Of a stretch of 64,000 bases of DNA, positions 44,758 to 63,999 are shown in pieces. The notes under the pieces are model-generated. The model was not told the origin of the DNA and ran no database searches. It worked only from the letters and a program-made list of their open reading frames with translations. Position numbers and translations under genes: made by a program. Source of the DNA: an uncultured Clostridia bacterium (lineage in GTDB: Bacteria > Bacillota > Clostridia > Christensenellales > CAG-314). Every line of letters begins with the position of its first letter. Positions within the stretch are counted from its first letter, which is position 1. The DNA is taken from positions 8,989 through 72,988 of the forward strand of contig CANQYT010000006.1 of assembly GCA_947628135.1 (NCBI GenBank), read 5' to 3'.

Positions 44758-44843
44758 AAATTTATTATACCACAGCAAATGCTTTTTATCAAGTTTATAA
44801 TAGCAATGCGGACAAACGTCAAATTGCAAAGTTGTGCGCCCAT

Positions 44844-44873
44844 AAAATTGCCCCGACGGCGAAGTCGGGGCAA
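44844..44873 (-). terminator. Intrinsic terminator ending the AGPS-like operon
   Basis: TTGCCCCGAC-N6-GTCGGGGCAA then TTTT on the minus strand. Confidence 0.7.
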
Positions 44874-44887
44874 GGAATCGGCTGCTG

Positions 44888-46624
44888 TCACCACTTGGGA
44901 CGGATAAACTTTTTGCTCTTTTCGGGCAGGTCGAGACCCAGCGTGCCGCCCGGGTTCATCAGTCCGTCCGGGTCGAAGTGCTTTTTGAGAGCCTTGTAAA
45001 TCTGCATCTGACGAGTACCTATTTGTCCTTCCAACCAGGGCGCGAAAAATTTGCCTATGCCGTGATGGTGACTGATAGCCGCGCCGCTCTTCTGAATGTG
45101 GTCGAGGATACCGCTCCAATAATCCACAAATTCGTCCAACTTCGTCATACGGGCGATGAAGATAAAGTACAGGTTTGCGCCCTGCGGATAGCAGTGAGAC
45201 ATATGGGTCATACAAATGGTGTCGGGACGGCTGTGGCAGTAGTCGCGCACCATTTTGTGGACCTGTTCCATCTGACTCCACCTGACGCTGCATTCGAGGG
45301 TGTCCGTCATTATGCCGAAATCCTGCATACTGTCGCGCAGATAGGGGTCGTTGAAACGTCCCTTTTCCCACGCGGAAGTGACCGCGCCGGTGAGACTCAT
45401 CGCTTTGTACTTTTTGCAAATACGCTTTACGTTGCGGCGGACGTTTTTGCAGAAACCTCTTTCGCCGTCGGTGAAACCGAGGAACAGACAGCGTTCGTGC
45501 GGTTTGTAACCGAACATTTTGAGCAGACCGTTGAGCGGACTTTCGTCTACGCCGTACATACGCATAGTGATGTCCGTTTCTTCGGGGTCGGACAGACGGA
45601 AAACGCTCGGACGTCCGCATTCGCACTGCATAATCTCCCTCGCCGCTTCCATTGCCGATTGCCAATCCTTGAACATATAACTGAATTTGAGGTGGTTTTT
45701 CGGCTGCCAACGGAAAATTTTGAGTGTGACGTGCGTAAGCACGCCGAATGTGCCCTCGCTGCCCATCATTATCTGGTTGATGTCCGGACCGGTTGCGCGC
45801 GCGGGAAAGGCTTCCGTCTTTACCACGCCCGTGGGTGTGGCGTACTCCTGCGCGATGACGATGTCCTCTATCTTGCCGTAGTAGGTGCTGTTTTGCCCTG
45901 CGCCGCGCGTAACGGTCCAACCGCCTACCGAACTGTACTCAAACGATTGCGGAAAATGTCCGCAGGTGTAGGCGCGCTTTGCTCCGAACAGCCGCTGTGC
46001 GTCGCGCAACGTTTCTTCCAACTTAGGTCCGCTCATACCCGCTTCCACGGTGATGGTCTGGTCCGTCTCGTTGAAATCCACCACCTTGTTGAAGTGACGG
46101 CGCATATCGAGGGTGATACCGCCCTTTATCGGCTCTACTCCGCGCGTGACGGACGAACCGCCGCCGTAAACGTAGAGAGGTATCTTGTGCCGCACGCAAA
46201 ACGCCACCAACTTTTCCACGTGGTCTTTGTTTTCGGGGTAGACGACGGCGTCGGGAACATTGTCCGCGATATGCTCCCGCAGACGAAGCAAGTCGTACAT
46301 CGTTTTGCCGTACGCTACCGACAGACGGTCGTAGTCGTCGGTGGAAACGTTGTCGTCGCCCACTATCAGACGCAATTCGTCCAACTGTTCCAACGTCAGA
46401 GCGCAAGGTTTGTCAAGTTTGACTATTTCCAGCCCCAACGGCTCGGCGTAATTTTTGAAATCGTCGTCGGTGAGGTGAAACGTTTCCTTCATCATCTTGT
46501 ACAGCGCTTCTTTGGGCGCTTTGACAAAGGCGGGATCGCCCCATTTGTAGATGGAACGGTAACTTCCCTTGGGGGCGACTTCTCTGTACCATTTCGGCTC
46601 GAAGCCTTTGTAGGGTTTGCTCAT
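44888..46624 (-). CDS. FAD-linked oxidase family, alkyl-dihydroxyacetonephosphate synthase (AGPS)-like protein
   Basis: PDAVVYP, YGGGSSV, GHFPQSFEYSSVGGW, GSEGTFGV, RLSD, HMSHCYPQGANLYF, SHHHGIG, DPDGLMNPG. Confidence 0.85.
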   Translation of the reverse strand: MSKPYKGFEPKWYREVAPKGSYRSIYKWGDPAFVKAPKEALYKMMKETFHLTDDDFKNYAEPLGLEIVKLDKPCALTLEQLDELRLIVGDDNVSTDDYDRLSVAYGKTMYDLLRLREHIADNVPDAVVYPENKDHVEKLVAFCVRHKIPLYVYGGGSSVTRGVEPIKGGITLDMRRHFNKVVDFNETDQTITVEAGMSGPKLEETLRDAQRLFGAKRAYTCGHFPQSFEYSSVGGWTVTRGAGQNSTYYGKIEDIVIAQEYATPTGVVKTEAFPARATGPDINQIMMGSEGTFGVLTHVTLKIFRWQPKNHLKFSYMFKDWQSAMEAAREIMQCECGRPSVFRLSDPEETDITMRMYGVDESPLNGLLKMFGYKPHERCLFLGFTDGERGFCKNVRRNVKRICKKYKAMSLTGAVTSAWEKGRFNDPYLRDSMQDFGIMTDTLECSVRWSQMEQVHKMVRDYCHSRPDTICMTHMSHCYPQGANLYFIFIARMTKLDEFVDYWSGILDHIQKSGAAISHHHGIGKFFAPWLEGQIGTRQMQIYKALKKHFDPDGLMNPGGTLGLDLPEKSKKFIRPKW

Positions 46625-46630
46625 AGATTT

Positions 46631-48160
46631 TTACTCCTTTTCAAGATATTTGTAGAAACTTTGCAGTTTGGCGTAGAGTTTGAGATAGATGTTTTTGTAG
46701 ATGTGTTCGTAAGTGACGACCGCCGTCGGCTCGGGGGTGAAAACGTCGGTGTAGCGCACCATATTGCTTATCGCATCGTGTTCGCTTGCGTACACTCCGC
46801 AGGATACGAAGGTCACTATCGCCGCGCCCAATGCGCTCGTTTCGTAGGTTTGCACGCGTTTGACGGGTTTGTTGAATATATTTGCGGCTATCTGACAAAT
46901 CAGATCGCTTTGCGAGCCGCCGCCGGAAACGGCGATGAAGTCGATTTTTTGCTTGCCGCGCTTTTCCATACGCTCCAAGCCTTCGCGCAGGGCAAAGTCG
47001 ATACCCTCGATGATGGCGCGATAGACGTGCGCGCGAGTGTGGTAGTCGGAAAAGCCTATTATCGCGCCGCGCGCTTCGGGCGCGGTAAGCCCCGCCTGCC
47101 AGAACGGCTGCAAGATAAGTCCGTCGCTGCCCGCGGAAACGGATTCTATTTCCTCGTTCATTATTTCCTCGACGGATCTGCCCATTTCCTCGGCGCGCTT
47201 TTCCAAATGACGGGCGAAATTCTGCTTAAACCAACTTATCATCCAATAGCCGCGGAATATCTGCACTTCGGGGTTGTAGTAATCTTTGAGTACGGCGGGA
47301 TAGGCGGGCATAAATTTTTCCGGTTCGAAATACTTCTTGGTGGAAAATTGCACCGTAGACGTAGTGCCGAAACTGACGGAGGCGACGTTGGTATCCACGC
47401 ACCCCACGCCCACCGTTTCGCAGCCCTTGTCCGAACCGCTTGCGATGACTTTCAACCCGACGGGCAAGCCCGTTTGCAAAGCGCATTCGGCGGAGATCGT
47501 GCCCACAACGTCCCCGGGAGAACAGATGGGGATCATATATTTGAGGTCCAACCCGTATACTGGGAAAGTGAGATCCTTTTCGCTCAGATAACGTTTCTTT
47601 TTGTGATCGAAGGGGAAGTGCCCTATCGTGGAGGCGTAACTGTCGACGAGATTGCCCGTAAGCAGCAAATTTATGTACGCCGAAATGTGCGCCACCTTGT
47701 GTACCTTTGCCCACAGTTCCGGCTCGTGCTGCATTATCCAACGGGTCTTTACTTTGCCGCGAATGGCGTTTACCGTGCGGGTCATATTCGCCAATTTGAA
47801 CAGAAACGCGTTTTTCGCGGGAAGCGGTTCGGACACGTCCGCCGTGCGCTGATCGCTCCACAGGATCATATCGCGCAGGACGTTGTTGTGTTCGTCCAAC
47901 AACACCGCGGTGTCGCGGAAGGTGTCCACGCTCATCGCTATTACTTCGCTCATCAGATCGGCGTGCCGCTCGGTGAGTTTGCGCGTTATGTCGCACAGCA
48001 CGCTCCAATACATATCGGCGGATTGCTCCATATAGCCGTTTTGCTTGCTGATATAGGGAACATATTTGACCTGTTCCTTTACCAACAGATTGCCCTTTTC
48101 GTCGAAAATGATACCGCGCATACTTTGCGTGCCGACGTCTATTACGAGAACGTTACTCAT
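46631..48160 (-). CDS. FGGY-family carbohydrate/polyol kinase
   Basis: IDVGTQSMRG, ILWSDQR, GSDKGCE, SFGTT, RAIIEG, SGGGSQS, SALGAA. Confidence 0.92.
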   Translation of the reverse strand: MSNVLVIDVGTQSMRGIIFDEKGNLLVKEQVKYVPYISKQNGYMEQSADMYWSVLCDITRKLTERHADLMSEVIAMSVDTFRDTAVLLDEHNNVLRDMILWSDQRTADVSEPLPAKNAFLFKLANMTRTVNAIRGKVKTRWIMQHEPELWAKVHKVAHISAYINLLLTGNLVDSYASTIGHFPFDHKKKRYLSEKDLTFPVYGLDLKYMIPICSPGDVVGTISAECALQTGLPVGLKVIASGSDKGCETVGVGCVDTNVASVSFGTTSTVQFSTKKYFEPEKFMPAYPAVLKDYYNPEVQIFRGYWMISWFKQNFARHLEKRAEEMGRSVEEIMNEEIESVSAGSDGLILQPFWQAGLTAPEARGAIIGFSDYHTRAHVYRAIIEGIDFALREGLERMEKRGKQKIDFIAVSGGGSQSDLICQIAANIFNKPVKRVQTYETSALGAAIVTFVSCGVYASEHDAISNMVRYTDVFTPEPTAVVTYEHIYKNIYLKLYAKLQSFYKYLEKE

Positions 48161-48512
48161 TTGCTTCCTCCATATCTCTCGTTGTTACAAGTCTGACGCC
48201 CGTTCCGAACAGGTCGTCCACCAAAACCGTGCCTATGGGCAGCGGTTGAGTTATCGTCAGGTCGCGGCAAAGCGACATCAGATCGAAAATTTTGTCTTTG
48301 GGTATTTCTCCGTCCGTTTTTACCGAAACCACGGGATACCCTTTCACCGTGGAACGTACAGACCCCGTAACGCTGCGGGTGGGGTGGGTGAGTTCGCCTA
48401 CGGCAAAACTTTCGCCCCGTTTGCACTTGTTGCCCGAAACGGCTATCTGCCCGTCTTGCCGAGTCACGGTCAGTCTGCAACCGTTGGGACACACGATACA
48501 CACCATTTCCAT
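48153..48512 (-). CDS. CxxC metal-binding protein (DUF1667-like), small subunit of the GlpA-like trio
   Basis: CIVCPNGC...GNKCKRG. Confidence 0.85.
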   Translation of the reverse strand: MEMVCIVCPNGCRLTVTRQDGQIAVSGNKCKRGESFAVGELTHPTRSVTGSVRSTVKGYPVVSVKTDGEIPKDKIFDLMSLCRDLTITQPLPIGTVLVDDLFGTGVRLVTTRDMEEANE

Positions 48513-48513
48513 A

Positions 48514-49749
48514 CTATTTGTCCTCCAATCTTACGGTAAAGTCGTCCAACGTGTGCGCTGTGTCGAAGTTGACCACGATACGCTCCATTTCCGGCGGAAG
48601 CAACTTTGCGTACACCTTGGAAAACACCGTTTCGTCTCCCGCTGTCACCACAAGACGCTGGTTTGTCAATTCCTCGCTTGCGCGGAAGTACATCACCACT
48701 TTGTCTATCCCGCCGTTTACGTCGATACGCTGAGGCACGACGTACAGCAGTTTGCCCTCCGTCGAAACGGGTCTCAACTTGCGCTTGCCGCGGCGCACGA
48801 CGGCGCTTCCCGCAGTTTCGCCGCTTTCGGAAACGTAGTCCACAAGGTCGTTGACGTGCAACGCGTTGCCGCAGGCAAAAATACCCTCCGCAAGCGTTTG
48901 ACAGTTTTGGTCCACTATCGCGCCCTTTGTCTTGGGGTCGAGCGGCACTTGCAGATCGCGGGCGAGTTCGTTTTCGGGTATAAGCCCCACCGCAAGCACA
49001 AGGCAATCGCATTCCACTATCTGCTCCGTGCCGACGATGGGCCGCATACGCTCGTCCACCTTGCTGATTTCCACCTTTTCCAACCGTGTTGTGCCGAACA
49101 CGCGCGTCACCGTGGAGGACAGGTGTAGCGGAATGTCGAAGTCGTTCAGACATTGATGAATGTTCCTCGTCAGTCCGCTCGCAACGGGTTTCGCCTCGTA
49201 CACGCCTACGACTTTCGCCCCCTCCAAAGTGAGACGGCGCGCCATTATCAGTCCTATGTCGCCGCTGCCGAGTACGACGACTTTTTTACCGGGCATAACG
49301 CCGAGAATGTTGACGAGATTTTGCGCCGCGCCTGCGGTGTACACTCCCGCGCACCTGTCGCCGTGAATACCGATACCGTTGCGGGTGCGTTCGCGGCAAC
49401 CCGTAGCGAGGACGATACCGCCGCATTCGACCTGTTTCAGTCCCTCCTTGCAAACGTACGTCAATTTGTAGCCGTCGTCGCACTTTTCGGTGCGTGTGAC
49501 GAAACTCAACAGACTTACCTGTACGTTTGTTTGGCGCAATTTCTTTACAAACCTGTCGGCATATTCCGGTCCGGAAAGTTTTTCGCCGAAACGCACAACG
49601 CCGAATCCGTCGTGTATGCACTGTTTGAGAATGCCGCCCAATTTCGCTTCGCGCTCGATAAGCAGCACGCTTGCGCCCTGTTCGGAGGCGCGTATTGCCG
49701 CGGCAAGTCCGGCAGGACCGCCGCCGATAACCGCTACGTCGTATCTCAT
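48514..49749 (-). CDS. NAD(P)/FAD-dependent oxidoreductase (partner of the GlpA-like dehydrogenase)
   Basis: GGGPAGLAAA, LGGILKQCIHDGFG, ATGCRER, GSGDIGLIMARR, GIFACGNALHVNDLVD. Confidence 0.9.
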   Translation of the reverse strand: MRYDVAVIGGGPAGLAAAIRASEQGASVLLIEREAKLGGILKQCIHDGFGVVRFGEKLSGPEYADRFVKKLRQTNVQVSLLSFVTRTEKCDDGYKLTYVCKEGLKQVECGGIVLATGCRERTRNGIGIHGDRCAGVYTAGAAQNLVNILGVMPGKKVVVLGSGDIGLIMARRLTLEGAKVVGVYEAKPVASGLTRNIHQCLNDFDIPLHLSSTVTRVFGTTRLEKVEISKVDERMRPIVGTEQIVECDCLVLAVGLIPENELARDLQVPLDPKTKGAIVDQNCQTLAEGIFACGNALHVNDLVDYVSESGETAGSAVVRRGKRKLRPVSTEGKLLYVVPQRIDVNGGIDKVVMYFRASEELTNQRLVVTAGDETVFSKVYAKLLPPEMERIVVNFDTAHTLDDFTVRLEDK

Positions 49750-51470
49750 TGTCCCACCTCCTTTATTTTACACACGGCAACGTTGCTGCCTATGTCGTCC
49801 TTGGTTACGTCCTCTGCCTGCACGCCCGTTTCGTTGGCTATGATATCCACTATCAGCGGCATACAAAATCCGCCCTGACAACGCCCCATTCCCGCGCGCA
49901 CGCGACGCTTTACGCCGTCTACCGTGGTTACTCCCAACGGGTTGCGCAACGCTCGCTTTATCTCGCCGAGGCTTACCTCCTCGCATCGGCACACTATTTT
50001 GCCGAAATCGGGGTCGCTCTTTATCAATTCGTCGCGGTCGGCGTCGCTTAGTGATTTCGCTTTGACGGGACGAGGGCGAACGGGGTCGAACCGCTCGTTT
50101 GCCGCAACTTGCGTCCCAGCGGAAAGCAAATAGTCCTTTACGATTTCCGCAACGTCCTTGCTGAAAGCGGGGGCTGCCGTTATGCCCGGGGACTGTATCC
50201 CGGCAACGTGCACCAGATTAGCCACCTTGGCGCTGCGCTCGATGATGAAATCCTCTTCGTAGGTGGGGGCGCGAACTCCCGAAAAATACGCTATTACGTC
50301 GCTGCGCCTGAGCGTGGGACAAACCCCGCTGTGCTTTGCGAAAACGCTGTCGAAACTTTGTCTGTCGGTGGACGTATCCTCGCGATCGGGTATTTCCACC
50401 GCGTCCGGACCGAGCAGATAATTGCCGTCCGCAGTGCGAATTACGCCGCCGCCCTTGGTTGAACCGCTGCCGAACTTGGAAAGCGATTTGAGCGTAGGAC
50501 CCATACTTATCGTTTGGGAGGGAACGCCCTCCGCCTTGGGGTCGAGCATAAGATCCGTTCCGCGCCGCGGGTGAATGGAAAAGTACCTGTCTCCCGCCAT
50601 TTCGGCGATTTTATCGGCGAATACTCCCGCGCAATTTACGACGCAACGGGCGGTAAACGTTCCTCTGTTGGTGCAAATGCGCGCCACCTTGCCCTTTTCC
50701 ACGTCCATACCCGTCACGGCGGTATTCAGACAGATTTTTGCGCCGTTTTGTACGGCGTTTTCCGCATAGGCTATCGTAAGTTGGTAGGGAGATACGTACC
50801 CCGTGGAGGGCGCGTACAGTGCGCCCACGGCAAAGTCTTTTACGCGCGGCTCGACTTGGGCAATTTCCTTTTTGCCGAGGATACGCACGCCCGGTATGCC
50901 GTGCTTGACGGCGCGCTTGACCGTGCCCTTTGCAAAAAACCTGATGAGGCGGCTGTCGAATATCACGTACTGTCCCGACCTGCGGAAATCCACCCCCAAT
51001 TCCTTGCACACGTCGCCGTACAGGGCGTTGCCCGCCACGCCGTACTTCAATTTGAGACAGCGGTGTTTGAGGTCAATGCCCGCGTGTACCATTCCGTTGT
51101 TTGCGCCGCTTGCGCCGCGGGCGACGTCGCTGTGCTTTTCCACCAACAAAATGCGCAGTTTGTACTTTGTCAGTTCGCGCGCGACGGCGCAGCCGCTTAT
51201 TCCGCCGCCGATGACGACGACGTCCCAATCAGTGCCGTCAAGCGCGTTGTCGCTAAGCGCGGGAAGCCGCTCTGCGGGCGCAACGTAACCTTTGAGCGCA
51301 ATGTCGTTGACGACGTGTTTGCCTTCCGTCACGAACATCTTGCCTATCGCAACGACGTCGCTCCACTTGTCGCATTCGCCGGAAAGAAAAACGCTGCGTT
51401 CGTCCTCGCGCACGGAAACGTCCACGCCGTACCGCTTGCGTACTTGCTTTATCGTTTTGTCGAAATCCAT
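49746..51470 (-). CDS. FAD-dependent glycerol-3-phosphate-dehydrogenase-like (GlpA/LhgO) protein with C-terminal BFD-like [2Fe-2S] domain and an extra N-terminal domain
   Basis: GGGISG, ASGANNGMVHAG, GIQSPGITAAP, CRCEEV..RAGMGRCQGGFC; start MDFDK at 51470 with GGAGG SD. Confidence 0.88.
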   Translation of the reverse strand: MDFDKTIKQVRKRYGVDVSVREDERSVFLSGECDKWSDVVAIGKMFVTEGKHVVNDIALKGYVAPAERLPALSDNALDGTDWDVVVIGGGISGCAVARELTKYKLRILLVEKHSDVARGASGANNGMVHAGIDLKHRCLKLKYGVAGNALYGDVCKELGVDFRRSGQYVIFDSRLIRFFAKGTVKRAVKHGIPGVRILGKKEIAQVEPRVKDFAVGALYAPSTGYVSPYQLTIAYAENAVQNGAKICLNTAVTGMDVEKGKVARICTNRGTFTARCVVNCAGVFADKIAEMAGDRYFSIHPRRGTDLMLDPKAEGVPSQTISMGPTLKSLSKFGSGSTKGGGVIRTADGNYLLGPDAVEIPDREDTSTDRQSFDSVFAKHSGVCPTLRRSDVIAYFSGVRAPTYEEDFIIERSAKVANLVHVAGIQSPGITAAPAFSKDVAEIVKDYLLSAGTQVAANERFDPVRPRPVKAKSLSDADRDELIKSDPDFGKIVCRCEEVSLGEIKRALRNPLGVTTVDGVKRRVRAGMGRCQGGFCMPLIVDIIANETGVQAEDVTKDDIGSNVAVCKIKEVGQ

Positions 51471-51624
51471 TTCCCCCTCCCTGTTTCGGAAAGCAGCCGA
51501 ATAGGGCGAAATTACGTTTCCGCGCCCTTCGGCATTTACCACAAATTTTTTTACAATTCCATTATACCAATACGATACGCAAACAACAATACCGAAATTT
51601 TTCGCTATACGCGCACCGCAACGC

Positions 51625-51655
51625 AAAAAAAAAGCGCCCAACGTGTGTTGGGCGC
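51625..51655 (-). terminator. Intrinsic terminator
   Basis: GCGCCCAAC stem plus T9 on the minus strand. Confidence 0.8.
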
Positions 51656-51730: not shown

Positions 51731-52171
51731 TCAGCCCCTGCTCGACATAGCGACAAATTGCGTGGAGAGTTTTTGAACGTCTTGTCCTTTTACGGAATAG
51801 GTTATCACGATCATTGCGCCTTGAAGCGAAACGTTGTGACCTTCCTCGTCCGACTTGATTTGCTCGTAATGAGACTTTGCCGCGTCGGCGTCTTTGTAAT
51901 ACCTGATGGAAACGACGTCGCCGGTGAGTTTTTCCAGCGTTTCGGGCTTGGCAAGTTCCGCGATGGTAAAGTCGTCAAGGTTGGTTTTCCAAGCGTTCAG
52001 TCTGGCTGTCAAATCGCCGACCGTAACTTTACTGAGATACACGTGGTAGTCTCTGCTCTCCAAAGTGTCCCTGTCCTTGTCGGGATCGCCCGAATAGCCG
52101 CAAGCGACGAGCGCGGTAACCGTAAGCGCAACGAGAAGCGCAACGGCAAAAATCTTTACGAATTTCTTCAT
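51731..52171 (-). CDS. Hypothetical small lipoprotein
   Basis: MKKFVKIFAVALLVALTVTALVAC lipobox; GGAGGT SD; own TTGACA-17-TATCAT promoter. Confidence 0.8.
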   Translation of the reverse strand: MKKFVKIFAVALLVALTVTALVACGYSGDPDKDRDTLESRDYHVYLSKVTVGDLTARLNAWKTNLDDFTIAELAKPETLEKLTGDVVSIRYYKDADAAKSHYEQIKSDEEGHNVSLQGAMIVITYSVKGQDVQKLSTQFVAMSSRG

Positions 52172-52466
52172 ATAAGTTACCTCCATTGTTTGATATACCT
52201 TATGATAGCACTTGAATTTTTTTATGTCAATCTTAAAACAAAAAATTTACGGGCATTTCATCGCTTTTACGCAATGCCTGTAAAAAGGATATGCCGCCCT
52301 GCGCCGCTTTCCGACAAAAAGCGACATTGTTCGTCGGCATTTGCGAGTTTCGCCGCTTGCCGCAGTTATTTTAGGGGCATATACCGAAAATGCAAACCGG
52401 CAAAACGTCTGTACAGCAACGGCGAAAACAATGTCCGCCGATACCCGACGGCAAATACTGCGCGGC

Positions 52467-56142: not shown

Positions 56143-56598
56143 ATGGATGGCGTCAACAAAGACGATTGTTTTTTACACGGCGACGAATTGTATAAGAGTA
56201 TCGTGGGCGACGGCGCAAGCGACGTACACGTGCTGGTCGGTCAACTGTTGATCGGACTCGGTTTCAAGAGCAAACTGACGGGTACGCAGTACTTGAAGGA
56301 CGCGATATTGTACCGATATGCCAGACGGGACGTGGCGCACATCAACTACAACAATGAAGTGTACACCGACGTGGCGGAGAGATTGCACTCCACTCCGTGC
56401 AGGGTGGAACGCGCGATAAGAAAAGCCATCGGCGACTGCGCCGACTTCGGCAATCTCAACGCTTTCAACGACTTGATACACGGCAGAGTTACCGCGCCGG
56501 GATACGTTCCGTCCAACACCGAGTTGATAAGCCGCATTGTGGATTGGCTCAACATCGAAGAGGAAAAAGGTCACATAGCCAAGTCGGACGAGCAATGA
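56143..56598 (+). CDS. Stand-alone Spo0A C-terminal DNA-binding domain protein (no receiver domain)
   Basis: LGFKSKLTGTQYLKDAI, VYTDVAERLHSTPCRVERAIRKAI, PSNTELI match Spo0A C-domain motifs; AGGAGG SD. Confidence 0.85.
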   Translation: MDGVNKDDCFLHGDELYKSIVGDGASDVHVLVGQLLIGLGFKSKLTGTQYLKDAILYRYARRDVAHINYNNEVYTDVAERLHSTPCRVERAIRKAIGDCADFGNLNAFNDLIHGRVTAPGYVPSNTELISRIVDWLNIEEEKGHIAKSDEQ

Positions 56599-57851: not shown

Positions 57852-58087
57852 GAGGAGATACAACTCTAATCATCAAATATACTCATTTGATTTTGTACAA
57901 CGATCCAGCATAAATTTTCGCCTTTTTATTATAATATAAAATCAAAATTATTGAATATTTTCACAAAAAAAATAGAAAAGCACCGCGATATTTTCACCAT
58001 ACGTGCAATTATGACAATTTTTCCGCCGATATTGTTATACAAAACACTAAAACAGCATACGGCAAAGCAGCATCCAAACGTCAGCAT

Positions 58088-58128
58088 AAAACAATACGAG
58101 TCCAACACTACCTGTCGGACTCGTATTG
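58088..58128 (-). terminator. Terminator downstream of mrr
   Basis: CAATACGAGTCC..GGACTCGTATTG stem, T tract on the minus strand. Confidence 0.65.
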
Positions 58129-58172
58129 CTCTGCTTTGGCGAAGCAGTAGCGACTAAATTGAATTTATTTTT

Positions 58173-59087
58173 TCATAAAGTGTCGAAATAATCACTATCC
58201 ACGCGTTTGATCGTAATCGTCTTTTCCACAGAAACACCGACATTATATTCATACATCAGCTCTACCAGATTTTTACCGTTTATTAAAACGACGGAATTGG
58301 AGTTGTTTCTATTTACTGCCTCAATCGCTTGCTTGGTAAAATCTGATGTGGTAATAAATATACCTTTTCGCGCACCCTTTAATTGTAGTGCGCCGAAAAA
58401 CTGTTGGATCGTCGGGTGTCCAACCAAATTATCACGATTATACCTTTTGGCTTGTATATATATTGTATCTAATCCGAGTTTATCTTCTTTAACTAAACCG
58501 TCAATTCCTTCATCTCCCGACTTTTTGGTCGCCTTGCCTGCATCGGCTATATTACCTCCATATCCCATTGCAACTATTAAATCGACAACCAATTGTTCAA
58601 AAGCATATGGGGATTGTTCTAAAATTTTATTAAGTAGGTCATCGCAAACACTTTTTTTCAGTATTTCGTTTCCCTCTAATATTTTTTCCATAGGTGTTTT
58701 TTCTTCTTCAAACACCCCTTCGTGCCGATGAGTATTTTTGCCGTCTATATTTTGAAATTCCACAAACTGAGGGTATCTGCGCAAATAGGCAGTGTTTAGA
58801 TTTGTTATATTCTCTGCAACAACTCGATTGCCTTCGTCTGTAATTTTATAGTTTGATCTTGAAGGACTTAATATAAGTCCCGCCTTTTTCAAATACGTTA
58901 ATGCCCATCCAATTCGATTGATATATGTCGGTTGTGTTTGCGATGGCAAAGTTTCGTCCATTTGTTCAGTGGTAAGATGCATCATCGATGCCACATCGTG
59001 ATAGATAACTCTCTTCTGCCATATTTTGCCATTGGAAAGTAATTTAATTATAGGAAACATAAACTCTTGATAACTTGGAACATTCAT
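58173..59087 (-). CDS. mrr: Mrr-family type IV restriction endonuclease
   Basis: Mrr_N (PSYQEFMFPII..NRIGWALTYLKKAGLI) and catalytic SGDEGIDG..IYIQAKRY..GIFITTSDF; AT-rich; alternative GTG start 59096. Confidence 0.93.
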   Translation of the reverse strand: MNVPSYQEFMFPIIKLLSNGKIWQKRVIYHDVASMMHLTTEQMDETLPSQTQPTYINRIGWALTYLKKAGLILSPSRSNYKITDEGNRVVAENITNLNTAYLRRYPQFVEFQNIDGKNTHRHEGVFEEEKTPMEKILEGNEILKKSVCDDLLNKILEQSPYAFEQLVVDLIVAMGYGGNIADAGKATKKSGDEGIDGLVKEDKLGLDTIYIQAKRYNRDNLVGHPTIQQFFGALQLKGARKGIFITTSDFTKQAIEAVNRNNSNSVVLINGKNLVELMYEYNVGVSVEKTITIKRVDSDYFDTL

Positions 59088-59191
59088 ATAAAACACCTTT
59101 TTTATTTAATTATATCACACATTCTAAAACATAGAAACAATATTTTGACAAAATGTTACTTTTATACTAATCTTATAAGGGAACACAAACT

Positions 59192-60185
59192 ATGAAAACA
59201 CGAAAAAAAACTACACAACTAGATATTTCGGTCAAAAAGGCTTCTACGCCCGTTCTTTTTTTTAGACTCAAATTATATTATAGAATTTAATAAGGTACTA
59301 AAAAACAATTGTACCGACAAGAGTTACGAGAAATTGCTTGATGTACTTAATATAATGTCAAATGAAAATCTAATTCATTGCCCCATTGCAGATCAATCGT
59401 TGGAGGTATCATACGGCAAAAACAAACAACAAAATTTACAACTACTCAATCGCATAAGCAATGGCAGCAGATTCCGTCATTATGTAACCATCGAAAAACA
59501 GGAACAAGCGATTTTCTTTGATGCTTATCTTAACTCTGAAACAAAGATTATTTTAGATTACAATTTAGGCTTGCGATTTTTGGGCGAGACCTCGCAATCA
59601 TCAAATATCGACATTTCATTTGTAGTTGAAGATAATGTAATTCTTTCTTTACAAGAAAGTAAAATAGAATTTGCAAAAAAAATGAACGAGTTAAAAGAAA
59701 AGAAAAAAGATTTATCTTTTTATCAATTGTTCGAACAGGAAACAAATTCTGAGGGCAATACTTTGGAAATATATTTAAAAAATCCAAATTCTCAATTTAT
59801 ATCTAAACAGTTCACGAAAGAAATATTAGAAATTTATGCGCATATTATTGCTAAAAACGATTTTTCTATCAATGAAATGTCTTTACAACTATTTATGACC
59901 TTTTTATTTAGCGATTATTGGAAAGAAACGCCTTATTGCTATATCAAAAAATCAATTTTGGCATTTATGCTTTCCCGCAATCGTCATTTTAAAAAAAGCG
60001 ATTTTATGGATATAAACAATGCCTGTTATTTTTTTCCTTTCTGTAATTTCTTTTTAACAGATAAATATTTGGCAAATTGTTTGAATGAACTTGGCTTAGA
60101 GAAAAAATATAATACCGTTGTTTTTTCAAAAACCAATTTAGATGAGTTAATTGATATTTTAGAACACTTGATAGGAATCAATTAA
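59192..60185 (+). pseudogene. PIN-domain-like protein split by a 1-nt frameshift at a T8 tract (about 330 aa if restored)
   Basis: The ATG 59192 frame stops after 32 codons; removing one T from 59256-59263 gives PVLFLDSNYII joined to the 59334-60185 ORF, which ends SDFMDI..CNFFLTDKYL. Confidence 0.65.
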
Positions 60186-60480
60186 ATATATCTAAAAGAT
60201 TCTGCGCCGAATCGACTTAAAAGTTTTCAATCGAAACACAAAACGCGCAAGCACCTTTTCAATCGAACAATGCAACGGCTTGACGGCGATCACGGACAAT
60301 GCAATAGAAGTAAACGGATAGTATTTGACGAAACTGCTGCCAAAATGTTGACTTCCGCGTGGCAGAGCGATCTATACTCGTCCTTGATCATAAATTCACG
60401 ACGGAACTTCCACAAGACAACCGCGTCCTGTGGAAATTGAGCCAACAGATTTTTGCAATGTAAGATTTATCTAAAACGAA

Positions 60481-61041: not shown

Positions 61042-62289
61042 TTACTTGTCCTTTTTGCTGCCGAACTTTTTCTTCATCGCCGCGAACGTCCTTGCAAAGA
61101 AACCTTGCGGCTTTTGTTCGATGATGGTCACGTTGTCCTCGTCCAACGACTTGGTAACTTCCACTTCCTCGTACTCGCAATAGTCGGAGGTTATCGCTTT
61201 TGTCGTCGTCTCGTTGAAGAAACGCGTGTAACCCGTTTCCACAGCGACGCGAATGACATCGTGTTCGCGTATGGTGTACTTGTTGGGTATCTTTACCACA
61301 ACGTCTATGTCTCCCACTTTGCCGTGTACGTTGAGAATGTCTCCCAGCAACTCGACAATGCCCACTTCCATTGCAAAGGACGCGTCTCTGAACTGTTGAA
61401 AACGATCGTCGCCCTCATATATCAAATTTTCGGGGCGAACGCCGTAAACCAACCCGTGACCGACGTAGTTTTTCAGCAGTTCTTTCTCTTCGCCGCGCAG
61501 GGCAACGGTCTGCTCCGACCCGCGAATGGCAAACGTGCCGTCCTCGTTGAGCGTGCCGTACAGGAAATTCATCGCGGGCGTGCCGATGAAACCCGCCACA
61601 AACAAGTTTGCGGGGTTTTGGTATATTTCGTTGGGAGTGCCTATCTGCTGAATGAAACCGTCTTTCATAACCACGATGCGGCTTGCCATCGTCATTGCCT
61701 CTATCTGGTCGTGAGTGACGTAGATGGTTGTTGCGCCCACTTCTTCGTGGATACGCACGATTTCGCTGCGCATCGCTACGCGCAATTTGGCGTCCAAGTT
61801 GCTGAGCGGTTCGTCCATAAGAAACACTTTGGGACGGCGCACGATAGATCTGCCCAACGCCACTCTTTGGCGCTGTCCACCCGAAAGGTTGCGCGGTTTG
61901 CGGTCGAGATAGGGTTTCAGCCGTAAGATCTTTGCCGCTTCCTGTACGCGACGGTCGATTTCTTCCTTGGGTACTTTGCGCAGTTTCAGCGCGTACGCCA
62001 TATTGTCGTACACCGTCATTTGCGGATACAGCGCGTAGCTTTGAAACACCATCGCGATGTCTCTGTCCTTGGGCGCGGCTTTGTTCATCAATTTGCCGTC
62101 GATGTACAATTCGCCGTAGGATATTTCCTCCAACCCCGCCACCATACGCAGCGTCGTCGATTTGCCGCAACCGGACGGTCCGACAAAGACGATGAATTCG
62201 CCGTCTTGTATGTCGATGGAAAAGTCGTGTACCGCGTGCACTCCGCCTTCATACACTTTGTTTACGTTTACCAATTTTACCGATGCCAT
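61042..62289 (-). CDS. msmX: Sugar ABC transporter ATP-binding protein (MsmX/MalK family)
   Basis: [37 protein letters not shown] domain, extended C-terminal tail. Confidence 0.93.
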   Translation of the reverse strand: MASVKLVNVNKVYEGGVHAVHDFSIDIQDGEFIVFVGPSGCGKSTTLRMVAGLEEISYGELYIDGKLMNKAAPKDRDIAMVFQSYALYPQMTVYDNMAYALKLRKVPKEEIDRRVQEAAKILRLKPYLDRKPRNLSGGQRQRVALGRSIVRRPKVFLMDEPLSNLDAKLRVAMRSEIVRIHEEVGATTIYVTHDQIEAMTMASRIVVMKDGFIQQIGTPNEIYQNPANLFVAGFIGTPAMNFLYGTLNEDGTFAIRGSEQTVALRGEEKELLKNYVGHGLVYGVRPENLIYEGDDRFQQFRDASFAMEVGIVELLGDILNVHGKVGDIDVVVKIPNKYTIREHDVIRVAVETGYTRFFNETTTKAITSDYCEYEEVEVTKSLDEDNVTIIEQKPQGFFARTFAAMKKKFGSKKDK

Positions 62290-62291
62290 AG

Positions 62292-63242
62292 TTATTTTAC
62301 CGCCTTGTTTATTTTTTCTTTGTTACCCATTGCCGCAATTGCGCCAAAATTCATCGTTGTGTACGCGCCGCATTTGCACGCGAAATCCAAAATATCTTTG
62401 CAGTCGATACTCGCAACGTTTAGCGGCGTTGCGCCCGCCTCTATCAGCCGAGAGATAAGCCCTCCGAAGAAGGAATCGCCCGCCCCGGTAGTATCCGCCA
62501 CAGCCACCTTGTAACCGTTGCAGACAGCGCTCGGTTTGCCGTCCGAATACAGTTTTGCGCCTTTGCCGCCGTCCGTTACCGCAAGCAAACGCGTTTTGCC
62601 CGAAAACATCGCTTCAACGGCTTGTTCGCCCGTGCGTTCGGTCAGGAACTCCATTTCGTCCCTGCCCACCTTTACGACGTCGGCAAGAGGGGCAAACCGT
62701 CTTACCGTTGCGCGCAGTTCCTCTTTGTCCCACAGATTGAAACGCAAGTTGGGGTCGAAACACACCAACGCACCCGCCGCGCGCGCCTTGTCTATCAGAT
62801 ACAGGTGCGTTTGCCTCGCCTCTTCGGTGGCAAGCGCCACACTGCCGAACTCAAATGCGTCGCCGCTTTCAAAGGCGACGTCGGCAAAGTCGTTCGGCGT
62901 GAAAGACAGGTCCGCCGCGGTCCTACGGTAAAAACTGAATTCCCGTTCGCCGTTTGCCGCAAAACTCACAAACGCCAACGACGTGTCCCGTTCGGCGCTT
63001 CGTCCGACGTGACTTACGTCCACGCCTTCGCGTTGCAGCGTTTCCACCAAGAAGTCGCCGAAAGAATCCTGCCCCACCTTGGTAAGATACGCGCTGTCCG
63101 TCCCCAATTTGGCGGCTTGTACGCACACGTTTGCAGGCGCTCCGCCCGCCTTTTTTACAAATTGTTCAGTATCTTTGAGAGAGGCCGTTCCCACCGACTG
63201 AAAGTCGATAAGCAACTCTCCCAAACAGTACAGCCTACTCAT
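62292..63242 (-). CDS. PfkB-family sugar kinase, probable fructokinase
   Basis: GGAPANV, FDPNLR, DTTGAGDSF; follows a GH32 gene. Confidence 0.88.
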   Translation of the reverse strand: MSRLYCLGELLIDFQSVGTASLKDTEQFVKKAGGAPANVCVQAAKLGTDSAYLTKVGQDSFGDFLVETLQREGVDVSHVGRSAERDTSLAFVSFAANGEREFSFYRRTAADLSFTPNDFADVAFESGDAFEFGSVALATEEARQTHLYLIDKARAAGALVCFDPNLRFNLWDKEELRATVRRFAPLADVVKVGRDEMEFLTERTGEQAVEAMFSGKTRLLAVTDGGKGAKLYSDGKPSAVCNGYKVAVADTTGAGDSFFGGLISRLIEAGATPLNVASIDCKDILDFACKCGAYTTMNFGAIAAMGNKEKINKAVK

Positions 63243-63999
63243 AAAACTTTACGTCCTTTACCGTGACCTTTGCGCCGTTGGAATAAAACGCAAGGTTGTT
63301 GCCGTCCATATCGGTGACGCGTGACGTCAAAGCGACCGTACCGTCCAAATAGACCGTAACCACCTCGCCGTCGATAATTACGTCCACCGCGTACTCTTTG
63401 TCAAGTTCGAAGGCAAAGTTCACCGACGTCAAAGGCGCGCCGTAACGCAGAATACTCGATACGTTGTTGTAGCAGACAAGTTTGCCGTTTTGCGGCTCAA
63501 ACGCCAACGCCGCACTGCCGAGACGCTTGTTGTAGTCTCCGTCCAAACCGAACGTCAAGCCGAAGTCTCCGCCCGCTTCCTCCACGCTCATCGTGAAAGA
63601 AATGCGCGTTACGTTGTCGGAAAGTCTTTGCAGACCGACTGCGTCGAATTTGCCGCTTTCAAAGACAAATTCGCTTTGTTTGCCGCCGTCCACGGTGAGA
63701 TACTCGACTTCGTGCGAAAAATACTTTTTGTAACTGTCCGGCATAACCGCGCACAGTTCGCCGTCGGGCATTTGCTTGATTTGATGAGTGACAAGATTGC
63801 CGCCCCAATCGAATCCGCCCGCCGCACCGCCGCTGAGGCGCGCGCACCAGGCGAACGCAAACAGTTTGCCGTCGGCTTTTTCCAGACGTCCCGCGTAAAA
63901 GCCCGCGGCGTCTATTGAGTCACGCTCGAACTTGTGCCATTCGGGGTCGTCGTGAGAGGTTTTGTAACGATAGTGCGTGACGCGGTCCGTCCCCTCGCC
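63235..63999 (-). CDS. GH32-like beta-fructofuranosidase/levanase, C-terminal part (5' end outside the window)
   Basis: Frame is open to the window edge: ..GFYAGRLE..FAWCAR..FDWGGNLVTHQIKQMPDGEL followed by a beta-sandwich domain. Confidence 0.75.
   Translation of the reverse strand, partial: GEGTDRVTHYRYKTSHDDPEWHKFERDSIDAAGFYAGRLEKADGKLFAFAWCARLSGGAAGGFDWGGNLVTHQIKQMPDGELCAVMPDSYKKYFSHEVEYLTVDGGKQSEFVFESGKFDAVGLQRLSDNVTRISFTMSVEEAGGDFGLTFGLDGDYNKRLGSAALAFEPQNGKLVCYNNVSSILRYGAPLTSVNFAFELDKEYAVDVIIDGEVVTVYLDGTVALTSRVTDMDGNNLAFYSNGAKVTVKDVKFYE

Follow-up and report, generated by a model that had tools for sequence, protein, structure and literature searches.

Why should an uncultured Clostridia bacterium encode a homologue of alkyl-dihydroxyacetone phosphate synthase (AGPS) in one operon with an FGGY-family kinase and three genes of the kind that oxidises glycerol-3-phosphate (G3P)? 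The operon lies on the minus strand, at 51470-44888, of a 64,000-nt stretch of contig CANQYT010000006.1; this whole stretch is hereafter called the window, and all coordinates are window positions. A prediction made earlier from the letters alone (the original prediction) proposed that the operon phosphorylates an O-substituted glycerol, oxidises it and cleaves the ether at the AGPS-like enzyme. Our best reading, held tentatively and at less than an even chance, is that the operon is accessory and serves, without oxygen, to salvage or break down 1-O-substituted glycerols by way of a keto intermediate. The O-1 substituent is most likely of lipid type (alkyl, alk-1-enyl or acyl); the substrate class, the order of the steps and the catabolic direction are what we infer from the comparisons below.

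Based on the list of open reading frames and on Pfam, the five genes are tightly packed and constitute one operon. In gene order they encode a long-form FngA, a GlpA-like FAD dehydrogenase of 574 amino acids (49746-51470; DAO, 1e-67, and Fer2_BFD, 2.2e-13); an FngB-like NAD(P)/FAD oxidoreductase of 411 amino acids (48514-49749; Pyr_redox_2, 8.8e-33); an FngC-like Cys-cluster protein of 119 amino acids (48153-48512; DUF1667, 5.7e-25); the FGGY-family kinase of 509 amino acids (46631-48160; FGGY_N, 3.4e-36, and FGGY_C, 9.9e-34); and the AGPS-like flavoenzyme of 578 amino acids (44888-46624; FAD_binding_4, 2.1e-31, and FAD-oxidase_C, 4.7e-28). The gene identities and coordinates given originally were right, Pfam supporting every domain. 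Junctions had been put at 6 nt or less, which holds for three of them (a 4-nt overlap, then a 1-nt gap, and a 6-nt gap as the last) but not for the third in order, an 8-nt overlap.

The AGPS motifs reported for the product of the last gene proved to be real. Its best solved relative is Dictyostelium ADPS (2uuu; E 3.8e-67 over query residues 61-559), and guinea-pig AGPS (4bby) matched it at E 3e-53; D-lactate dehydrogenase matched at 9.4e-25 in the FAD domain only. Employing an AlphaFold model (predicted local distance difference test score, pLDDT, 85.1) as the Foldseek query, we found AGPS chains at all listed ranks from 1 to 34 with TMq values of 0.73-0.78, and D-lactate dehydrogenases from rank 38 with TMq values of 0.61-0.67. 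Identity in the structural alignments with AGPS chains was 24-26%. When the protein was aligned to 4bby, Tyr578 corresponded to Y486 (in GANLYFIF), the HHH loop to H519-H521 and Arg419 to R343, and these residues were invariant in 53/53 orthologues. Roles for Tyr578, the HHH loop and Arg419 of the guinea-pig enzyme were reportedly described by Nenci in 2012. Two mutant AGPS entries of the PDB, 4bca and 4bc7, were among the structure matches, and the Arg is the residue mutated in 4bc7. The protein combines the AGPS architecture (FAD_binding_4 plus FAD-oxidase_C, the AGPS-type N-terminal region and the fold) with the AGPS residues (the catalytic Tyr, the HHH loop and the Arg). A complex prediction for residues 1-558 of this protein with residues 1-440 of the long FngA, from 53-row alignments of each, returned 'no answer' with a score of 0.00, which speaks neither for nor against a complex.

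We then placed the protein among 112 family members with FastTree (local supports only; the tree is unrooted and drawn with a midpoint root). It fell in a 7-row clade within clades of 15 and 19 rows, with supports of 97-100 (99 for the 19-row clade). The eukaryotic representative (P0261, source eukprot) shares another clade of 12 rows, support 100, with P0173, a family member fused to a PlsC/GNPAT-type acyltransferase, and E. coli YgcU sits in a third, separate clade of 5 rows (support 99). Because the eukaryotic, acyltransferase-linked clade differs from that of the window protein, the latter is an AGPS-family enzyme but not a demonstrated AGPS orthologue. The phylogeny that had been suggested as a check put the protein apart from both YgcU and the eukaryotic AGPS representative.

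Fusion proteins connect the same family with G3P dehydrogenases. AGPS-like domains are joined to DAO plus DAO_C (a GlpD-type G3P dehydrogenase) in 5 of the 14 long representatives scanned; four of these fusions are included in the tree, where they occupy at least three branches, and named examples come from Calditrichota and Fidelibacterota. The family also has NUDIX-fused members. These fusions are independent support for a coupling of AGPS-like enzymes with G3P dehydrogenases, and they fit a route through substituted dihydroxyacetone phosphate (DHAP).

For the GlpA-like trio, the original prediction had the gene types right, and the family to which they belong is now characterised. FngABC, a heterotrimer of Pyrococcus furiosus published in October 2026, is described in the available text of PMC13689815 as an electron-bifurcating enzyme that oxidises G3P and reduced ferredoxin while reducing NAD+. 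According to the same text, about 35% of FngA homologues, chiefly from Clostridia, are FngABC, and many Clostridial FngABC adjoin sugar kinases and polyol genes, not glycerol genes (section 15); neither 'alkyl' nor 'FAD-binding' occurs in its main text as available. The window trio has the same architecture, with adjacent A (DAO plus a BFD [2Fe-2S] domain), B (Pyr_redox_2) and C (DUF1667, with CxxCxxxC and a fourth Cys), and by its domains we assign it to the FngABC family. Against the trio, all NCBIfam G3P models scored under their cut-offs (219.9 vs 460 and 124.9 vs 552.8).

The window FngA is longer than many of its relatives. An additional alpha/beta mini-domain occupies residues 1-60 and is followed by a linker up to about residue 80, by the DAO domain and, at the C terminus, by a BFD-like [2Fe-2S] domain. 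The structural model has a pLDDT of 90.6, with blocks of 94-97 over residues 1-60, and predicts a helix-strand-strand-helix-strand fold for the mini-domain. In a structure search with this model, no match spanned the mini-domain; the best, glycerophosphate oxidase of M. pneumoniae (4x9m, Z 42.4), covered model residues 79-470, and the top score for residues 1-82 in the ESM Atlas was 0.79, to an unnamed cluster. Short FngA genes of the same or related genomes, of about 480 amino acids, begin to match at about residue 80. Short FngABC trios were also present in 4 of the 5 other genomes examined, and one (L091) lies directly beside a GlpK gene.

Linkage of the AGPS-like gene to kinase and GlpA genes in relatives, on which the original prediction depended, was borne out. 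With the AGPS-like protein we retrieved 80 loci (64-92% identity, many of them close kin), and Fng genes lay directly upstream of the AGPS-like gene in 73, spanning Clostridia, Bacilli/Erysipelotrichaceae and spirochaetes. The full order FngA-B-C-kinase was found in 48 loci and FngA-B-C without the kinase in 22; one locus had FngA-B-kinase, two had FngB-C-kinase at a contig end, two had only the kinase upstream, again at a contig end, and five had no adjacent Fng or kinase gene. These last five are all Treponema or Spirochaetaceae metagenome-assembled genomes (MAGs), three of them with less than 5.2 kb of upstream flank. In the 80 loci, the FngA match began no later than residue 30 of the window protein in 70/71 hits. 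The cassette defines a distinct 'long' subfamily of FngABC bifurcating enzymes.

The host genome (1.66 Mb, 95% complete) has as its nearest public relatives uncultured gut Clostridia MAGs labelled Christensenellaceae, 'Candidatus Fimimonas' and similar. Cultured carriers among the loci are Emergencia timonensis, Faecalicoccus pleomorphus and Treponema sp. TIM-1, and a protein of Clostridium amylolyticum is 69% identical. We compared 61 relatives for long FngA; as these genomes are kin, we read the pattern as a description and attach no statistics to it. The same 27 genomes had both long FngA and an AGPS/YgcU-like gene, and neither was ever seen without the other: the host genome itself, 23 same-genus genomes, G059, G052 and G058 (the gene of G058 being YgcU-like). 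Within the genus the cassette is patchy (23/36 genomes), and the 13 genomes without the AGPS-like gene had only short FngA (12) or none (G015). Long FngA and the AGPS-like gene show obligatory co-inheritance. Single in-frame stop codons were seen in otherwise full-length matches to long FngA in G006:C20 and G013:C5 (TAG), to the kinase in G036:C1 and to short FngA in G027:C4; these are decaying copies or assembly errors.

The kinase is less firmly tied to the unit. By the curated cut-offs of NCBIfam it is neither GlpK (147.6 vs 590.35 bits) nor XylB (258.1 vs 380.25 bits), and a true GlpK (685.4 bits) is encoded on another contig of the genome. At its locus (C7:13166-17665), the latter gene directly follows split transketolase genes and precedes a metallophosphoesterase, adjoining neither a glycerol facilitator nor a G3P dehydrogenase. 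Aligned with E. coli GlpK and the genome's own GlpK, the window kinase keeps Arg84, an acidic residue at position 85 (Asp for Glu), Trp104 and the catalytic Asp246 in 47/47 sequences and substitutes the positions of GlpK Tyr136 and Phe271; we take the aligned GlpK positions to be glycerol-binding residues. This pattern would fit a head group that resembles glycerol and bears something more, but as evidence it is weak. In G016 the space between MatE and DTD, the genes bordering the entire operon in relatives, holds the kinase and nothing else; FngABC and the AGPS-like gene were thus gained or lost together, separately from the kinase. In G046 and G048, kinase orthologues (45% identity) share operons with PAP2 phosphatases and an acyl ligase. 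In 4 of the 5 kinase-less genomes examined, the best other FGGY match was at most 29% identical, with no orthologue elsewhere.

Could the operon simply serve ordinary glycerol or G3P metabolism, with FngABC as a G3P/DHAP oxidoreductase and the AGPS-like gene as an unrelated 2-hydroxyacid-type dehydrogenase that merely shares the operon? The genome has only one FngABC and keeps its GlpK elsewhere, the NCBIfam name that fits the AGPS-like protein best is GlcD, and GpsA (PF01210) was not found in this genome or in 36 same-genus genomes, although it is present in 16/24 other genera of the order and in 14/14 control genomes. The GlcD score, however, was 122.5 against a cut-off of 567.9, and the match to D-lactate dehydrogenase did not extend beyond the FAD domain. 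The joint gain and loss of long FngA and the AGPS-like gene across the 61 genomes, the lone kinase of G016 and the GlpD fusions of other phyla, which argue for a shared pathway, speak against it as well. Since the kinase is far under the GlpK cut-off, the true GlpK is elsewhere and short FngABC trios occur in 4/5 other genomes, the operon does not look like the ordinary glycerol route, and we regard this alternative as very improbable. The only visible G3P sources in this genome are the long FngABC and GlpK. The absence of GpsA was also considered as a clue to biosynthesis and rejected; all 37 genus genomes, carriers and non-carriers, are alike in this respect.

In the salvage of 1-O-substituted glycerols that we favour, the kinase, where present, would phosphorylate the free primary hydroxyl, and substrates already phosphorylated would bypass it and enter directly. 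By analogy with Pyrococcus FngABC, the long FngABC would oxidise C-2 to a ketone with reduced ferredoxin and NAD+. At the AGPS-like enzyme, the conserved Tyr would enolise the substrate, a flavin-N5 adduct would form and the C-1 substituent would leave, so that exchange or removal of this substituent would yield DHAP or acyl-DHAP. A ketone at C-2 puts the O-1 substituent alpha to it, the sole position from which AGPS chemistry can displace a substituent. Because oxidation at C-2 sets the substituent in this position, the succession of kinase, G3P-type dehydrogenase and AGPS-type enzyme would make sense as the logic of one operon.

The genes around the operon bear on what the substituent might be. 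Employing tblastn within 2.5 kb of the operon at the 80 loci, we found a TetR regulator upstream in 24; downstream, an AOR with a 4Fe-4S ferredoxin (Fer4) in 10 and an Abhydrolase_3 esterase in 5; an acyl-CoA/AMP ligase nearby in 5; an alcohol-acetyltransferase-like protein near the operon in 4; and an indolepyruvate-type ferredoxin oxidoreductase after it in 3. In 2 loci, both without an FGGY gene, a lipid kinase of the DAGK_cat/YegS (DgkB) type starts 16-46 nt past the AGPS-like match, and in 10 mostly same-genus loci an efflux-type MatE gene lies divergently upstream. The recurrent neighbour clusters of the 80 loci contained no uptake transporter, sugar-type regulator or aldolase/isomerase. 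Together, these signals point to lipid-type, not sugar-type, substrates. The HAD-IB hydrolase and acyl-CoA ligase downstream in the window were considered as parts of the system and set aside; the pair is syntenic only in four close relatives (L005-L008), with a further ligase match upstream in L069 (25% identity) and a HAD match upstream in L014.

As to direction, catabolism or salvage is favoured because the cassette is accessory in the genus, is often under TetR and includes an ATP-spending kinase, and because ferredoxin-linked oxidoreductases follow it in 13 loci; these oxidoreductases could supply reduced ferredoxin for FngABC. According to the available text of PMC9702350, labelling in the anaerobes tested ruled out DHAP and long-chain alcohols as plasmalogen precursors, which also argues for this direction, and saturated ethers were low in those anaerobes. 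The specific proposal that gut and other anaerobes cleave or exchange a glyceryl ether, a chemically inert bond, without oxygen, the kinase and FngABC turning 1-O-alkyl(enyl)glycerol into alkyl-DHAP and the AGPS-family enzyme acting in reverse to free an alcohol or aldehyde plus DHAP, appears to us rather doubtful.

The same enzymes might instead make ether lipids. FngABC would then oxidise 1-acyl-G3P (or supply DHAP for acylation), the AGPS-like enzyme would swap the acyl group for a fatty alcohol, and FngABC would reduce alkyl-DHAP to 1-alkyl-G3P, so that the cycle of lysophosphatidic acid, acyl-DHAP, alkyl-DHAP and alkyl-G3P would be redox-neutral. Such a role would agree with the conserved AGPS catalytic residues and fold, with the AOR beside the operon in 10 loci, which could reduce the released fatty acid to an aldehyde, with the acyl-CoA ligase downstream here and in 4 close relatives, with the acyltransferase fusion P0173 and with the fact that no PlsA-type (HGD-D) gene was found in this genome. 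The operon, however, is without an acyltransferase and a fatty-acyl reductase, the window clade stands apart from the acyltransferase-linked clade, and the cassette is dispensable in the genus, being missing from 13/36 genomes. An inducible salvage route would better account for a TetR repressor and a kinase, and the labelling results and low saturated ethers of PMC9702350, to the extent of its available text, tell against synthesis too, the species concerned being perhaps without the operon. Synthesis of ether lipids is in our judgement unlikely.

Several observations weigh against a salvage of 1-O-substituted glycerols. The kinase, claimed originally as the first step of the pathway, is absent from 22/80 loci, and 5 same-genus genomes keep it (62-69% identity) without the AGPS-like gene and long FngA; it is therefore optional and not a dedicated, obligatory first step. 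Each lipid-type neighbour was seen in only 2-24 of the 80 loci, many of which are close kin, and the AGPS-like protein lies outside the clade of P0261 and the acyltransferase fusion P0173. Since this genome has no short FngABC and no GpsA, the long FngABC here may simply handle plain G3P/DHAP. Because E. coli YgcU keeps the Tyr, HHH and Arg too, these motifs do not settle the function of the AGPS-like protein. Relatives of the YgcU type sit with electron transfer flavoprotein (ETF) genes, suggesting redox enzymes.

The last two points speak at the same time for another route, in which a small soluble polyol is phosphorylated by the kinase and oxidised by FngABC, and the AGPS-like protein, instead of exchanging ethers or esters, is a second dehydrogenase or an isomerase acting on the ketose phosphate. 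In E. coli, YgcU clusters with the FGGY kinase YgcE, ETF genes, a short-chain dehydrogenase/reductase (SDR) and two transporters; YgcU-like genes lie beside ETF or Fng genes in G052 and G058; and the sugar kinases and polyol genes beside many Clostridial FngABC in the available text of PMC13689815 point the same way. At the 80 loci, however, the recurrent neighbours lack the transporter, sugar-type regulator and aldolase/isomerase of such a route, and TetR and lipid-type genes stand there instead. Moreover, the window clade keeps an AGPS-type N-terminal region that YgcU, in its separate clade, lacks. We consider the polyol route an outside but serious possibility, and the salvage of 1-O-substituted glycerols remains our preferred, if tentative, reading.

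The signals around the operon are largely as predicted. Upstream, a promoter-like site was read from the sequence at 51561-51589 on the minus strand, comprising TTGTTG, a 17-nt spacer and an extended -10, TGgTATAAT (51569-51561). The promoter claimed earlier is thus visible in the sequence but absent from the list of a consensus scan, which demands at least 4/6 matches per hexamer and reported no promoter upstream of 51470. FngA starts with ATG at 51470, preceded by the ribosome-binding site GGAGGGGG at 51480-51473. The terminator claimed at 44844-44873 was found as an intrinsic terminator (44838-44873, minus strand) with a 10-bp stem (7 G-C pairs) at 44873-44848 and then a T run, and the terminator of the upstream lipoprotein gene (51634-51655, minus strand) is the 5' boundary of the operon.

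The leader (51470-51560, with about 85 nt between the -10 and the ribosome-binding site) could form a hairpin, AGGGCG ... CGCCCT. Rfam at gathering thresholds gave a single tRNA in the whole window and no riboswitch match in the leader, and no regulator gene adjoins the leader in the window, as compared with the TetR gene found there in 24/80 related loci. Short contigs from two RNA libraries cover parts of all five genes (X1, 18/30 bins; X2, 9/30 bins). X1 and X2 are two runs from two studies, with word shares of 0.18 and 0.07; several contigs are 99% alike and DNA carry-over is possible, and we did not count them as proof of expression, nor do gaps in their coverage carry any meaning.

Elsewhere in the window, a 151-aa predicted lipoprotein is encoded upstream of the operon at 51731-52186, with two paralogues (27-31% identity) on contigs C20 and C5 of the genome. 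At 56143-56598 there is a 151-aa protein with only the C-terminal DNA-binding domain of Spo0A and no receiver domain. An island of low GC (58000-60200; 0.33 vs about 0.53) is probably acquired DNA and carries a gene for an Mrr-type restriction endonuclease (58173-59096, minus strand) and an open reading frame of 283 amino acids without a Pfam match (59334-60185). At 61042-63999, genes for a MalK-type ABC ATPase, a PfkB kinase and a protein with a GH32 C-terminal domain lie in a row, probably as a cluster for the use of fructan or sucrose that continues beyond the window.

How does the cassette compare with known systems? AGPS/ADPS (EC 2.5.1.26; 2uuu, 4bby) has the same two Pfam domains, fold and Tyr/HHH/Arg as the window protein, but the latter belongs to another clade than the eukaryotic representative, is 24-26% identical to AGPS chains in structural alignments, comes from an anaerobe and is known from sequence. 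In place of a GNPAT-type acyltransferase or fatty-acyl reductase partner, its operon has a kinase and a bifurcating dehydrogenase. Pyrococcus FngABC has the same three subunit types in the same order as the window trio. The window FngA differs from the published one in its extra N-terminal mini-domain of about 60 residues with a linker and co-occurs with an AGPS/YgcU-like gene, and the kinase adjoining the trio is not GlpK. In a literature search, we found no paper linking an AGPS homologue to FngABC/DUF1667 genes and none on anaerobic alkylglycerol cleavage. New here are the split into long and short FngA and the finding that the long form and the AGPS-like gene co-occur exactly; new as well are the independent occurrence of the kinase, a lipid kinase at loci without FGGY and the connection to the published FngABC family.

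In the ygc cluster of E. coli K-12 (ygcU, ygcE, ygcQR, ygcNO, ygcW and ygcP), an AGPS-family flavoprotein and an FGGY kinase likewise occur together. YgcU is 29% identical to the AGPS-like protein (188 bits), and YgcE is 26% identical to the window kinase (194 bits), the best-scoring kinase comparison made. YgcU, however, is without about the first 80 residues, its alignment starting at about residue 81 as against residue 61 in that of the window protein with 2uuu, and the place of FngABC is taken in the cluster by ETF/FixCX-type genes, an SDR and two transporters. None of the window genes scanned with Pfam and NCBIfam is an ETF gene. Two loci from members of the same order, L103 (G052:C54) and L105 (G058:C21), encode YgcU-like flavoproteins 44-46% identical to E. 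coli YgcU; one adjoins an ETF-like gene and an FGGY kinase, and the other stands beside a DUF1667/Pyr_redox/GlpA-like set, about 4 kb from an ETF-like gene. With these arrangements, the ygc type of E. coli is connected to the Fng type. Among the matches listed by a literature search on YgcU, titles and abstracts showed only unrelated work, and 'ygcE' does not occur in the FGGY paper of Zhang 2011.

To our knowledge, no function has been assigned to the bacterial AGPS homologues or the E. coli ygc genes, and the cassette gives both a testable frame, in which a G3P-type oxidation feeds an AGPS-type reaction; cultured carriers make enzyme assays and induction tests feasible. A bacterial AGPS homologue tied to ether lipids, as a minor route, is Agps of Myxococcus xanthus (Lorenzen 2014, as cited in the available text of bioRxiv 10.64898/2026.06.23.733905). 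It is likened here by description only; its host is aerobic, and that text reports no linkage to Fng or kinase genes. For ether cleavage, the known system is alkylglycerol monooxygenase, described in the available text of PMC9192799 and PMC7911779 as the only known alkylglycerol-cleaving enzyme. If the cassette does cleave ethers, it would be the anaerobic counterpart of this monooxygenase. The reaction of the latter requires oxygen and depends on tetrahydrobiopterin; that of the cassette would be oxygen-independent.

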